A DNA stretch of 63,132 nucleotides, the filler included, from Globobulimina sp. (taxonomy: Eukaryota), in assembly GCA_003354225.1 (NCBI GenBank). It is 50 parts of 50 records of this genome, joined end to end, with 100 filler letters (N's around TTAATTAATTAA, not from the genome) between each part and the next. Parts side by side here need not be neighbours in the genome. Positions count along the whole stretch, not along the records: positions 21,510 to 22,674 come from PIVH01021892.1; 49 more parts are not named here. One strand, given 5' to 3'. Below are positions 2,668 through 22,774 of this stretch, one piece after another. The position numbers were made by a program, and so were the translations under genes. Positions within the stretch are counted from its first letter, which is position 1. Each line of letters opens with the position of its first letter. The notes under the pieces are model-generated. The model was not told where the DNA came from, searched no databases, and saw only the letters and a list, made by a program, of their open reading frames with translations.

Positions 2668-3645
2668 TCATACTTGGACCGTTGTGGAGGCGGAAGTGGC
2701 ATCAGCAGAACCATCCGATTTCGTATTTGATGATTTTGTGGCTAATTGCATTTCAGTCTTCAAATTTTTAATATTTATTACATGCTCTTCCCAATACGAC
2801 GACATTCGACCGCACATTTTATAAAACACAACTTGACCGCATGGGAATTGTAAATAAAGGCAAAATAAATTAACACATTCATCTAATTGCAAAAACATTA
2901 CATGTGAAACCCAGATAATTTCGCCCGTCCCATCAAAGTATCGAACCACACTAATAATGCTTACTAAATTGGACGATAATAAGCCAATGGCGGCGCAAAT
3001 AATTAATTTAAGTGCTGATTTTACCAAAGATTCATCTTCTAAAACTAATATTTTCTTAAAGAAAACTATCAGCAAAATACTGGTAAAAATTAAATTTGTA
3101 ATTTGAAATAAAAAAATAGTTAAATTTGCCCAGTGCCAATGTTCCATTGACATACGAAAAAATACCATCACCATACATGCTAAAAACATTTGAATCACCA
3201 AACCAAAGATAAAGAAAAGAAATAAGTATCGCGAGGTGGCCAATGTGGTCCCTTTGAAGGCGTAGGTCAATCTCACCACAAATAATAAATATAACAATGA
3301 TAAACCAATTTGATAACAAAGCGTAGCGACTAATCCTAAATCTAACCACAATACGAAATCGTAAATGCAATAAAGACTCGATGTTAAATGAATGGAATAT
3401 AAAACAGTCGACAACATAAACAGTACAACAAGTGTACAAAAAACACCTTTAATAAATTTCATTATTGTATGAATTGTGTCCATTTTGAACGATATTACAT
3501 ACATAAAATATGCTCCAAACGAATATACAAAAAGGGTCCCTAAATTGGTCATCACCCATGCTAATGTTGAGTATGGTAACGGATCAAAACAAACAATATT
3601 CCACTCAGCTGACATGATAATTGCTAATTGATACTTTCTTCGCAA
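2668..3645 (-). CDS. Seven-transmembrane (GPCR-like) membrane protein
   Basis: About 7 hydrophobic helices followed by a Ser/Thr-rich cytoplasmic tail. Confidence 0.6.
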   Translation of the reverse strand: MRRKYQLAIIMSAEWNIVCFDPLPYSTLAWVMTNLGTLFVYSFGAYFMYVISFKMDTIHTIMKFIKGVFCTLVVLFMLSTVLYSIHLTSSLYCIYDFVLWLDLGLVATLCYQIGLSLLYLLFVVRLTYAFKGTTLATSRYLFLFFIFGLVIQMFLACMVMVFFRMSMEHWHWANLTIFLFQITNLIFTSILLIVFFKKILVLEDESLVKSALKLIICAAIGLLSSNLVSIISVVRYFDGTGEIIWVSHVMFLQLDECVNLFCLYLQFPCGQVVFYKMCGRMSSYWEEHVINIKNLKTEMQLATKSSNTKSDGSADATSASTTVQV

Positions 3646-4019
3646 CGAAGGAGCAGTTGTAAATTGGCTATGAAAACTGAAAACTAGTCTGCTATGAANN
3701 NNNNNNNNNNNNNNNNNNNNNNNNNNNNNNNNNNNNNNNNNNTTAATTAATTAANNNNNNNNNNNNNNNNNNNNNNNNNNNNNNNNNNNNNNNNNNNNTG
3801 TTAACTTTTTTAACTCGGAGCAACCGTCCCATAGAGGCTCGACCAAAATTTGTGCCCGAGATATATAGGTTCAAGCATCTCAAAAGAACCGGTGAGTCCC
3901 AGAGAACCACGAATGACCCTCAGATGAACTACCCAGTTCTTAATATATAGCAAGGCATTGCAGTGCAATGAGATCAAAAACCAGTATATCAGATTGTATT
4001 TGAAAAACTTCCCAACTGA

Positions 4020-4964
<945 letters not shown>

Positions 4965-5064
4965 NNNNNNNNNNNNNNNNNNNNNNNNNNNNNNNNNNNN
5001 NNNNNNNNTTAATTAATTAANNNNNNNNNNNNNNNNNNNNNNNNNNNNNNNNNNNNNNNNNNNN

Positions 5065-5931
5065 TTTGGCGCGGTGGTCGACGGCGCCCGACCGCGCAAT
5101 GGATTCGCTGCCGGCCAAATCCACCAGATTCAAAGTGCCCGTCTTGACAATCTCCTCCGTGTTGATTGTGCATTTTATGCGAATGGTGATGGTGAAGATG
5201 CAGTGGCTGCGCGAGGACCGGTTGTTGAGATTGGTGGCGGCCGTCTTGCGTTTACTGGTTGATTTGGACAGTATATCAAAGATATGCTGCGGCGATGACA
5301 CAATTATTTCCTCCAAACCTTGTACGAACACACCGTGGCCGCCTTTGATGTTTTGCTTTTTGGTGTCGTTGTAGATGGTTAACTTTTTCTTTTTTATTTC
5401 CAAGTCGCACAGTAAATCGGTCAGCTCTTCGTTGTAGATTTCCAAATGGGAAACGATTACGGTGGACTCTATGGAGTCACGTGCCAGTTCGTGGAATATT
5501 GCTTTTATGGCTCGGGGAATGATGCCATCGTCGTCGTTTTGGTGGTTGTTGGCGTGGTCGTTATTGAACCGGTTGCCTTCCATTGTGTAGGTTTTGCCGG
5601 AGCCGGTTTGTCCGTATGCGAAGACGGTGCAGTTGTAACCAGATAGAACGTCGCTGATTATTGGCTCAATGGAATGCGAGAAGACTCCGTTTTGTTTGGT
5701 GGAGGTGTTGTAGACTTTGTCAAAGGTGTACAGTTTGTTACTATCGCGGCCGCGCGCACGCGGAATTACGACACCGATCTGGTTTTTACGACTGTTGCAG
5801 ACAACTTCGCAGAGACTCTTCTCGCCGGGCAATAAGGGACGACAACGCACGGCGACTTTAATATTGTCTTTTACATGTTGTTTTTTACGGCTCTTGTTGT
5901 TGTTGTTTTTTACGCTCGAAACATCCGACAT
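5065..5931 (-). CDS. KIF11: Kinesin-5 (BimC/Eg5-like) motor domain, 3' truncated
   Basis: NIKVAVRCRP, GYNCTVFAYGQTGSGKTYTMEG, LEIYNEELTDLL, SSRSH, LNLVDLAGSESIARSGA. Confidence 0.88.
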
Positions 5932-5994
5932 TATGGGGATAGTAACTACTTCACTGAAAATATATGATTTGAATATTTAAAAAAGTGGTTTTTT

Positions 5995-6229
5995 ATGATG
6001 AGCAAACGAACGGAAACAAAAACAAAACAACAACAGACATGCTATGCTTTGGAGGCATGTGGTGAGGATGAACTGCTTGATATATTTGAAGAATCATTTG
6101 GTTATTTATCATTTGTTGAGAGATTTGTGGATAGAATTCGACGGCAACCAATTGATTATTTATCGTCAGATGCAAAAGATACTATTGCAACATCACCACA
6201 ACCACTTATTATTTTAGATATTGATAATA
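5995..6229 (+). CDS. Probable HAD-family (FCP1/SCP-like) phosphatase, N-terminal fragment
   Basis: Ends in PLIILDIDN, a DxD HAD motif I, at the contig edge. Confidence 0.4.
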
Positions 6230-6329
6230 NNNNNNNNNNNNNNNNNNNNNNNNNNNNNNNNNNNNNNNNNNNNTTAATTAATTAANNNNNNNNNNNNNNN
6301 NNNNNNNNNNNNNNNNNNNNNNNNNNNNN

Positions 6330-7735: not shown

Positions 7736-8301
7736 TTGCAGCTGGTCCTACTCAACGTATTGAGAGTTCTGAGAGTTTTGAGAGTGATGATAGTGATATC
7801 AGTATTGAGAGTTCTGAGAGTGATGATAGTTTCGACCGACATAATAAAAGTATTGGGAGTTCTGAGAGTGATGAGAGTATTGAGAGTGGTGAGTGGTTAA
7901 ACTTAAATGAAGAGAGTTCTGAGGGGGAAGAACGTATTGATAATGTTTCGGACGACGATGATAATGATTCAGAGTCAAATATGTTCAAAAAAAGAAAAAG
8001 AAAAAAGAAAAAAGGAAATAAAAAAAACAGGGAAGATGCAAGTGATGACAGTGTTGAATTTGCGTCACAAAAAACTCAATTGTTTGATGAATATAACATT
8101 TATAAGACCGATCCTAAGGATATGTCGCATCGTATATCAGTACATTTCCGTTTAAGTCCAAGAGTATTGAGTGTATGCGGATTATTTGCTGTATTTATTA
8201 TTTTTAATTCTGTAATATTTTGTTATTATGTAAATTATAAATGTCCTACAGAGACAGAGACAGAATTTGCCTCATCTGAAGCACACAGAATTGTCATTTA
8301 A
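7597..8301 (+). CDS. Mucin-like membrane protein (PT-rich stalk, acidic/basic region, C-terminal TM), 5' truncated
   Basis: Frame is open from the contig edge (TTATP repeats, then ESSESD-rich, KKRKRKKKK, and TM VLSVCGLFAVFIIFNSVIFCYYV) to TAA at 8301. Confidence 0.7.
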   Translation, partial: TTATPTTATPTTATPTTATPTTATPTTATPTTATPTTATPTTATPTFAAGPTQRIESSESFESDDSDISIESSESDDSFDRHNKSIGSSESDESIESGEWLNLNEESSEGEERIDNVSDDDDNDSESNMFKKRKRKKKKGNKKNREDASDDSVEFASQKTQLFDEYNIYKTDPKDMSHRISVHFRLSPRVLSVCGLFAVFIIFNSVIFCYYVNYKCPTETETEFASSEAHRIVI

Positions 8302-8379
8302 ACAACTTACTCAGCATTGTTATTATATTATTTTGTTCTTATTATTTTTTTTTTATTATTTGATTTAATTTATGTTTTT

Positions 8380-21509: not shown

Positions 21510-21628
21510 ATGAATACAATTTCAAAGCTAGTAAGCTTACCAATGCGAGCCTTACATTCACTAGCACCCATATAATCCCTAGCCTTAAGAGCCTTGTACA
21601 TCTTATCTATCAACTCTTGTCTTGTCAT
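21510..21628 (-). CDS. Small hypothetical protein (MTRQELIDKMYKALKARDY...), truncated
   Basis: GAGGTG at 21637-21632 precedes the ATG at 21628. Confidence 0.6.
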
Positions 21629-21766
21629 ATACACCTCATTCCTTGTTTGAGACCTCATCTCACATAGCCTAAAATCGCTATTAGCGAGCCTTAGTGCCAT
21701 TTATATGCACATTAGGTCATACACCGCCTAATCGCAAGCCTTATCGCTTACACAGAGCCTCACCGA

Positions 21767-21782
21767 CAAATTATTAAAGAGC
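21767..21782 (-). promoter_or_regulatory. boxA-like antitermination motif
   Basis: GCTCTTTAATAATTTG versus the rrn/lambda-type boxA context GCTCTTTAACAATTT (one mismatch). Confidence 0.45.
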
Positions 21783-21789
21783 CTGACAT

Positions 21790-21854
21790 GATCTCATCAG
21801 CATACGCATAACGTATGGCTACCTAGTAATATATATATACTAGGCATTTCGATC
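21790..21854 (-). ncRNA. Type II hammerhead ribozyme fold with variant core (G at position 16.1)
   Basis: Minus strand: GAUC-GAAA-[UGCCUAGUA UAUAUAUAU UACUAGGUA]-G-C-[CAUACG UUAUG CGUAUG]-CUGAUGA-GAUC. Both core boxes and all three stems are present. Confidence 0.8.
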
Positions 21855-21856
21855 TG

Positions 21857-21946
21857 TTAAATATTATGCTTATAATGTAATCCACATACTTGACATACAT
21901 AGCATTGATATAACCTTGAATATTTACGATATAGACATAAGCACAT
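21857..21946 (-). CDS. 29-aa Cys-rich small protein (possible zinc ribbon)
   Basis: AGGAG SD 8 nt before ATG; MCLCLYRKYSRLYQCYVCQVCGLHYKHNI*. Below the size cutoff of the supplied ORF track. Confidence 0.55.
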   Translation of the reverse strand: MCLCLYRKYSRLYQCYVCQVCGLHYKHNI

Positions 21947-21967
21947 GGTATTATCTCCTATTAGGTT

Positions 21968-22002
21968 ACAGTAACCATAGGCTATTAACCTATGGCTACC
22001 GT
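21968..22002 (-). promoter_or_regulatory. Intergenic 14-bp stem-loop (possible RNA processing site)
   Basis: ACGGUAGCCAUAGG-UUAAUAG-CCUAUGGUUACUGU; no U-tail; directly precedes the SD of the sORF. Confidence 0.55.
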
Positions 22003-22012
22003 TAGTTATATA

Positions 22013-22243
22013 TTAGAGCTTAACTACTTTGCCTTTAGGCTTATTACTACTCTTGTTATTATTTACCATTAGGCAAAACTTAACTTTGTATTCGCCTTGT
22101 TCGCTCATACCAAAGTTATTGCCATACGATTCGCCGATTTGTGTATTAACTTTGCCTTTAGCATTAATAGTCTCAACACCTTGACCAAAGTTAATATCTG
22201 TAAATGTTACTGTACCCGCTTGTTTATTGATTACCATACCCAT
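22013..22243 (-). CDS. Small hypothetical phage-like protein (76 aa)
   Basis: GAGG SD upstream of the ATG at 22243 (MGMVINKQAGTVTF...). Confidence 0.6.
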   Translation of the reverse strand: MGMVINKQAGTVTFTDINFGQGVETINAKGKVNTQIGESYGNNFGMSEQGEYKVKFCLMVNNNKSSNKPKGKVVKL

Positions 22244-22774
22244 GATTTTAGTCCTCACTATTTAACTACTGTTAATATATACAGTCCACAATAACTGTAT
22301 TCACTATTCACAACTGTTATCGATTGATATATCGCTATCTGATACCCGATTAACCAGTACCATATAAGCCAAATACGCTTTTGGTGTCATGTCGCTTAGT
22401 CCTTTCTGTCGAGTTTTCGTTCTCTTTCGACATAACCCAATTTTACAGGATTTTCTCGAGCTTTTCAAATCGCATTTTTCTATTGACAAAACGGCAAAAA
22501 ATATCTAACTTTTGAGGCGTAAATACTCGGTGTTTTCGAGGCTTTTGTATTGAGACGTTGACTGGTAAAAACAAAGTCTCCAAAAAATCGAAAAAAATCT
22601 TTTCTCCAATACAAATCGTGTTTTGAAGTACGATTCTATCGATTAACATTTCAAAAAACTTCCATCCGGTATTTNNNNNNNNNNNNNNNNNNNNNNNNNN
22701 NNNNNNNNNNNNNNNNNNTTAATTAATTAANNNNNNNNNNNNNNNNNNNNNNNNNNNNNNNNNNNNNNNNNNNN

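Follow-up and report, generated by a model that had tools for sequence, protein, structure and literature searches.

The window, by which we mean the whole stretch of DNA analyzed (63,132 bases), consists of 50 unrelated contigs of 1164–1166 nt each, arranged in order of length with N44-TTAATTAATTAA-N44 spacers between them. Several of the other pieces carry eukaryote-type genes, among them GWT1, Rpb1 domains of RNA polymerase, SET/TPR and an endonuclease-reverse transcriptase. Because the pieces are unrelated, any reading that draws on "neighbouring genes" across a spacer is invalid. The contig that holds the hammerhead-like element has a GC content of 35.4%, compared with ~28–33% in most other pieces of the window. 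Read along the minus strand, it starts with ~430 nt in which we saw no convincing open reading frame (ORF), followed by three ORFs, with the element lying between the second and the third. The features of the contig and of the element are as follows, with bases and stems in hammerhead numbering.

21510..22674, minus strand: contig holding the hammerhead element, 1165 nt, the sole relevant context in the window
22243-22013, minus strand: 76-aa ORF, the first in the minus-strand order of the contig
21968-22002, minus strand: perfect hairpin (16 bp, 3-nt loop) in the stretch that separates the 76-aa ORF from the 29-aa ORF, just upstream of the ribosome-binding site of the latter
21946-21857, minus strand: Cys-rich 29-aa ORF, with its stop codon TAA at 21859-21857, 2 nt before stem II
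21855, minus strand: unpaired A 5′ of stem II, invariant in the family alignment
21854-21851, minus strand: 5′ strand of stem II, GAUC, positions 11.4-11.1, by direct reading
21850-21848, minus strand: core G12 A13 A14 (GAA), matching the consensus
21847, minus strand: A15.1, matching the consensus and facing G16.1
21846-21838 with 21828-21820, minus strand: stem III, 9 bp with one G-U pair, by direct reading
21837-21829, minus strand: loop III, 9 nt of alternating U/A, by direct reading
21819, minus strand: G16.1, the sole departure from the hammerhead consensus and the sole non-standard pair flagged by the family model
21818, minus strand: C17, non-G as position 17 demands
between 21818 and 21817, minus strand: predicted cleavage site, placed by alignment of the core
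21817-21812 with 21806-21801, minus strand: stem I, 6 bp, or 7 if a U-G pair is counted, by direct reading
21811-21807, minus strand: loop I, UUAUG, identical with its closing pairs to the relatives L024, L091 and L108
21800-21794, minus strand: core CUGAUGA, C3-A9, matching the consensus
21793-21790, minus strand: 3′ strand of stem II, GAUC, positions 10.1-10.4, by direct reading
21789, minus strand: A after stem II, at least 90% conserved in the family
21510..21628, minus strand: first 39 codons of a truncated ORF that starts at 21628, 155 nt past the ribozyme, the contig end cutting off the rest

Direct reading of the minus strand at 21854–21790 gave the type II stem order, with stems I and III capped, stem II open, positions 10.1 and 11.1 paired as G10.1–C11.1, and all core bases in place except 16.1. 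The first-pass annotation had described a type II hammerhead fold with a G at 16.1, and these features indeed lie at the coordinates listed above; the cut that it had predicted between 21818 and 21817 agrees with the putative site given by our core alignment. Its extension of stem II by an ACA/UGU pairing has to be dropped, as this is no feature of the family: in the relatives described below, the 4-bp stem II is flanked at both ends by an unpaired A. At 16.1, where hammerheads require a non-G base in an A15.1–U16.1 pair, the locus carries an A–G mismatch. Because this one defining feature of an active hammerhead fails, we filed the element as a core-mutated copy and not as a working ribozyme. 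In type II hammerheads, the tertiary contact is usually a pseudoknot in which loop I and the 3′ tail form at least 4 bp (excerpted text of PMC3088659). Here, judged by eye, the 3′ tail offers one 4-bp, all-A/U match to loop I ~13 nt downstream, and a 5-nt complement of loop I sits on the 5′ side at 21868–21864; both lie within chance expectation.

We then considered the kind of genome from which the contig derives. Shine-Dalgarno-like sequences precede both the 29-aa ORF and the truncated ORF, and for this reason the contig looks bacterial or phage-like. Searches against Pfam and PHROGs gave nothing significant for five ORFs of the contig, a word-based search limited to near lengths returned no homologue of the 76-aa ORF, and none of 50,697 phage records matched the contig by blastn. 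Scans for promoters and terminators stayed at chance level. The earlier description of a "phage-like contig" draws its support solely from the ribozyme family and the bacterial-style gene starts; the three ORFs are without homologues, and the contig in question is only 1165 nt long.

Downstream of the ribozyme, the 164-nt leader was no more stable than its shuffled counterparts (z = −1.44). A cluster of eight same-strand copies of AGGCT, five of them as AAGGCT, adjoins the ribozyme on this side, spanning 233 nt of the minus strand (21552–21784) and running into the next ORF; ~0.77 copies would be expected per whole contig, and the maximum in 2000 shuffles was five. Within the cluster, GCGAT followed by AGGC occurs three times.

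Upstream, the hairpin at 21968–22002 shares the 10-mer GGTAGCCATA with the cleavage-site region of the ribozyme. A single exact repeat of this length in 1165 nt is close to chance expectation (our own estimate is ~0.65). A second, decayed hammerhead carrying an identical G would have made a base error less likely, and 21986–22013 was considered for this role; the candidate was rejected, because the segment belongs to a perfect 16-bp hairpin and MAFFT produced no alignment to the element.

The published record bears directly on what a G at 16.1 should do. According to the excerpted text of PMC3923133, which cites Kore 1998, hammerheads need an NHH triplet and do not cleave when the first H is G. 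The same U16.1-to-G change is among the escape mutations selected in phage MS2 against an inserted hammerhead, as reported in the available portion of PMC4075628. The excerpts of Perreault et al. 2011 (PMC3088659) give losses of 10-fold or more for 15.1/16.1 mutants; weak activity is recorded for a U15.1–A16.1 variant, and matches with a mispair at A15.1–U16.1 were rejected from the hammerhead collection; core variants in phage or prophage contexts are described there as sometimes active and often worth testing, and slow phage variants as possibly regulated. PMC7092961 sums up a proposal in which U16.1, together with G12 and C17, contributes to a Mg2+ pocket.

Folding calculations pointed to a further possible effect. 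Over 72 nt, the hammerhead fold was placed at −18.9 to −20.1 kcal/mol, compared with −20.4 kcal/mol for the minimum-energy fold, in which A16.2, G16.1 and C17 are predicted to pair with U4, C3 and G2.1. In this model, separated from the hammerhead by a small energy difference, the G16.1–C3 pair extends stem I and would bury C17, C3 and U4; a U at 16.1 is unable to make this extension. This one energy calculation suggests that G16.1 may favour a misfold through its pair with C3. With the background above, we infer a loss of activity of the G16.1 copy.

The energy of the 83-nt fold was unremarkable (z = −1.75). Its centroid structure shows the three-way junction, and its minimum-energy structure instead pairs CUGAU with GUCAG of the 3′ tail. 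In six relatives (L005, L025, L041, L082, L109 and L131), AUCAG directly follows stem II and is able to pair with the core CUGAU; in the window copy (21782–21800), GUCAG lies a few bases further on, where it is predicted to pair with CUGAU in place of stem II. Such a CUGAU–(A/G)UCAG pairing may act as a competing "off" helix in these relatives and in the window copy.

To gauge the chance expectation, we applied our own type II descriptor, with one core deviation allowed, to both strands of the window, and the locus at 21854–21790 was the only match. Among 539 dinucleotide shuffles of the window, 57 contained at least one loose match (stems of 4/3/3 bp or longer, no more than one deviation), one contained a zero-deviation core, and none reached stems of at least 6/6/4 bp. 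A rough hand estimate gives ~1e-5 matches of such quality, with one core deviation, per window. A scan of ~250,000 windows could yield a few of these by chance; shuffles are therefore insufficient, and evidence from relatives is needed.

Such relatives were found in viral contigs. From the window locus we derived a search pattern in which the stem II strands, together with the core motifs that adjoin them, are separated by an unconstrained gap. This pattern matched at least 119 viral contigs in IMG/VR, where a rough estimate puts the chance expectation at ~20, and among the matches listed 118 of 129 had a type II hammerhead fold under a loose parser. We refer to these IMG/VR loci, L001–L131, as the GAUC-stem-II subfamily. 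Strict parsing of the matches listed gave 92 elements, of which a longer, overlapping L027 match was dropped, leaving an alignment of 91 unique members; from these, with the window sequence left out, we built a covariance model, R1. The subfamily shows several features of its own. Among the matches listed, the A before stem II is invariant (91/91 aligned members; 140/143 model matches), the A after it is kept in at least 90% of aligned members, and stem-loop I consists of 6 bp with a 5-nt loop whose first base is an invariant U. The window locus has the As flanking stem II, the 6-5-6 stem-loop I and the loop I beginning with U, all of which lie outside the search pattern. So do two further shared traits, the loop I sequence common to L024, L091 and L108 and the stop codon placed 2 nt ahead of the ribozyme.

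With filters off and the whole window searched, R1 scored the locus at 45.7 bits (E = 6.7e-10), the runner-up in the window reaching 12.6 bits. Because 19 R1 positions are fixed by a pattern derived from the window locus, this score is high partly by construction, and the useful benchmark is the set of non-hammerheads matching the same motifs, which score at most 33.2 bits. Members with the exact pattern score 48–79 bits among the matches listed, a range below which the window locus falls, and weaker true copies reach down to ~38 bits. Among bacterial genome contigs totalling 596 Gb, just 5 of 120 matches to the pattern have a hammerhead fold and the others are attributable to chance. On this ground the subfamily is essentially viral, and the bacterial matches gave no guide to the host. 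In this respect the first-pass reading is supported, since nearly all members of the subfamily to which the element belongs lie in viral contigs. On the strength of these sequence comparisons, the window locus is a homologue by descent of a common viral type II hammerhead subfamily. The relationship is confined to the ribozyme: when the contig and its three ORFs were compared with the 119 viral hammerhead loci by blastn and tblastn, the ribozyme alone matched, and an exact 34-mer of the hammerhead locus was absent from the viral contigs searched.

The Rfam models gave a different picture. At gathering thresholds, no hammerhead model was reported anywhere in the window, and the Hammerhead_II search proposed as a check by the first-pass annotation returned no hammerhead match at E ≤ 10 in 21650–22000 (351 nt). 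The same is true of bona fide members: ten viral loci, each with at least one canonical copy, had no Rfam match at gathering, and the canonical copies of L013 (7782–7841 and 8316–8375) receive 28.8 bits from Hammerhead_II (RF02276), whose gathering score is 37. With canonical relatives falling short as well, the Rfam miss of the window locus is uninformative. In L013, sub-threshold 25-bit matches to the freshwater-2 model (RF02980) at 7761–7834 and 8298–8368 overlap the hammerhead and the next ribosome-binding site.

Many contigs of the subfamily carry several hammerhead copies, as judged from R1 matches. A dense array in L093 has seven R1 matches within 3 kb (3327–6297) between small genes.

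We next analyzed how often position 16.1 departs from U. Among the matches listed, all 91 aligned members have U16.1. In the 143 model matches listed from 100 viral loci, which include ~35 extra copies outside the pattern selection, G12, A13, A14, C3, U4, G5, A6, G8 and A9 are each found in 143 of 143, and A15.1/U16.1 in 142 of 143. The one exception, a weak 22-bit match in L004 (1086–1162, minus strand), has the pair swapped to U15.1–A16.1. Across 181 model matches in 137 loci, the only G16.1 was in one non-hammerhead that the pattern had chosen for its G. A complete scan of viral contigs for a non-U base 19 nt before C3 gave 20 matches, which we sorted by eye into 12 non-hammerheads, seven canonical copies with a different stem I length and one true C16.1 variant. 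This variant (L120, 384–451, plus strand) has A15.1/C16.1 in an otherwise perfect family member scoring 62.4 bits. In a scan of 241 million metagenome records for a G at this position together with the family stem I geometry, six loci were recovered, none of them folding as a hammerhead. Both the non-U viral scan and the metagenome scan demand an exact GAUC stem II, and thus cover a subset of type II hammerheads.

A full-text literature search, with the supplementary alignments of PMC3088659 lying outside its scope, found no pairing of "G16.1" with "hammerhead", and no value for 16.1 appears in the examined part of an eLife 2023 pairwise-mutagenesis study. One suggestion of the first-pass annotation was that the G marks a natural core variant, for which viral and metagenomic homologues with a conserved G16.1 were to be sought; none were found, and a count of 0 in 91 aligned relatives together with the empty viral and metagenome scans speaks against it. 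Judged from the sequences compared, G16.1 is a one-off among the relatives sampled and not a conserved natural variant.

The gene context of the subfamily is highly regular. Counting as the upstream stop the one that closes an open frame of at least 40 codons, measured relative to the first base of the ribozyme, we found it at −1 to +7 nt in 78 of 91 relatives among the matches listed. A downstream start with a Shine-Dalgarno-like sequence lies 8–37 nt after the ribozyme in 75 of 91 (median 24), and 10 of the 85 relatives with a detectable downstream start place it more than 37 nt away, again among the matches listed. The window locus fits the 5′ rule, its stop lying 2 nt upstream of stem II, and breaks the 3′ rule, with the next start 155 nt away. 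In its usual layout, the ribozyme of the subfamily takes up the space that separates one gene's stop codon from the ribosome-binding site of the gene after it. It would presumably cut a long transcript after C17, yielding an upstream message predicted to end in hairpin III and a downstream message predicted to start with hairpin I. From this placement, we infer a processing role for the GAUC-stem-II subfamily.

Finally, we assessed the read support for the G at 21819. One public run, of unspecified kind, contains the contig 21510–22674 (share 0.94), and no RNA sequencing run containing it is listed among public runs. Two other runs of the same sample gave merely 36–38-nt matches at <90% identity. 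The word depth of the contig is ~3–6, with 3.02 in the bin holding 21819. None of the run contigs bridges 21783–21802. The run contig over 21803–22241 has one differing letter, whose position was not located, and lists none at 21819. Because the run contigs were built from the same reads as the assembly, their agreement at 21819 gives no independent support. Core-mutated copies and natural non-U16.1 are both very rare, and a low-coverage base error therefore gains relative weight.

With these results in hand, we lean modestly towards a real U-to-G lesion in a descendant of the phage type II hammerheads, that is, a recently disabled single copy and no conserved variant. Such a change would replace the essential A15.1–U16.1 pair with an A–G mismatch, G16.1 might in addition pair with C3 in an extended stem I, and the RNA as sequenced would most likely be non-cleaving or far slower than its relatives. 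The element is free of decay outside 16.1, its stems being perfect and its other core and family-specific bases intact. An intact remainder fits a very recent mutation, a base error and continued function equally well. A smaller but appreciable share of our belief goes to a base-calling or assembly error at 21819, in which case the true base is U16.1 and the element an ordinary, active phage type II hammerhead. The low depth, the unbridged interval 21783–21802, the single unlocated difference in the run contig and the otherwise canonical element all suit an error, and natural non-U16.1 is so rare that an error is not much less likely than a mutation. Against it stand the run contig, which lists no difference at 21819 even though it was built from the same reads, and the coincidence of an error hitting one specific, functionally critical base. 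We find it unlikely that the G is genuine and the RNA still works, either slowly or only in some conditions, as a ribozyme that naturally departs from the NHH rule; its cleavage might then, for instance, be damped, or be switched by conditions or by a partner. This reading would account for the perfect preservation of the remainder, the atypical layout (155 nt to the next start compared with 8–37 nt) and a 3′ tail able to pair with CUGAU, and has precedent in the weakly active natural core variants, including U15.1–A16.1, that the excerpts of PMC3088659 describe as possibly regulated. It is opposed by the absence of a second G16.1 in the viral and metagenome collections, and hence of conservation or covariation, by an unchanged 15.1 that does nothing to restore the pair, and by the lack of "G16.1" alongside "hammerhead" in the full-text literature search. 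Moreover, G is the one base not tolerated at 16.1 in the available text of PMC3923133, and U16.1G is a selected loss-of-function change in that of PMC4075628. It accordingly seems quite doubtful to us that a genuine G16.1 RNA cuts itself fast enough to be of biological use, be it perhaps in certain conditions only.

The two remaining explanations deny the assignment itself or its register. A chance look-alike, in which two unrelated hairpins happen to lie between CUGAUGA and GAAA with no hammerhead ancestry, is very improbable. Such a view can point to the one deviation allowed, the few matches expected from ~250,000 windows, the loose matches in 57 of 539 shuffles, the silence of the Rfam hammerhead models even at E ≤ 10 and the ordinary fold energy (z = −1.75). 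Yet stems of this length appeared in 0 of 539 shuffles, the R1 score of 45.7 bits exceeds the limit of 33.2 bits for motif-matching non-hammerheads, the family-specific bases and the stop-codon placement agree with the relatives, and the Rfam silence says little when canonical relatives score 28.8 bits against a gathering value of 37. We give practically no weight to a different register with a canonical core, a zero-deviation alignment also found by our type II descriptor, in which the cut would follow AUA in the U/A run, stem III would have 4 bp, and stem I would have 5 bp and enclose 25 nt. As drawn, it amounts to −0.2 kcal/mol, and at best −3.9, against about −20 for the main fold (~16 worse); it breaks the 9-bp and 6-bp hairpins, lacks the stem I geometry of the family and is a product of the low-complexity U/A loop.

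A recent U-to-G lesion thus remains our preferred reading, under which the window locus contributes a single damaged member to a ribozyme class that is already well known, and illustrates the strictness with which phages retain U16.1. The wider point concerns the relatives, a large phage type II subfamily that sits exactly between a stop codon and the next ribosome-binding site. Routine annotation probably undercounts this subfamily, because the Rfam model scores its members below the gathering threshold. Should the G16.1 RNA be active, it would be the first natural hammerhead to break the 25-year-old non-G rule at 16.1, and would represent a processing site, naturally attenuated or switchable, ahead of a leader that is unusually long and rich in AGGCU.

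As far as the excerpted text of PMC3088659 describes type II hammerheads (RF02276, clan CL00010), the window locus shares their core order, topology and G10.1–C11.1 pair, and like them it lies on the coding strand, with small genes of the same orientation on either side. The clustered copies that flank single genes in prophages, according to the same text, resemble the multi-copy contigs of the viral subfamily, and processing of long transcripts into gene-length messages was proposed there for the clustered prophage hammerheads. The window locus differs from RF02276 in lacking the required A15.1–U16.1 pair, having G16.1 instead, and from type II hammerheads in general in that, judged by eye, we saw no clear pseudoknot of at least four strong pairs between loop I and the 3′ tail. 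Compared with the GAUC-stem-II subfamily, it has U15.2–A16.2 in place of the usual C–G (C in 129/143 among the matches listed), and its stem-loop III is unusually long and AU-rich. The core variants in the excerpts of Perreault et al. 2011 (among them U15.1–A16.1, and A6C in phage Bcep176) each have a single core departure and lie in phage intergenic regions, as here. These variants had low but detectable activity when assayed, and the 15.1/16.1 case retained a Watson-Crick pair, whereas the pair of the window locus is broken and the locus is known from its sequence. The closest parallel in the base itself comes from the MS2 escape mutants (available portion of PMC4075628), which carry the identical substitution at the identical position. 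Those mutants arose in a laboratory construct under selection against cleavage, whereas the G16.1 of the window stands in a natural, DNA-phage-like contig without evidence of such selection.
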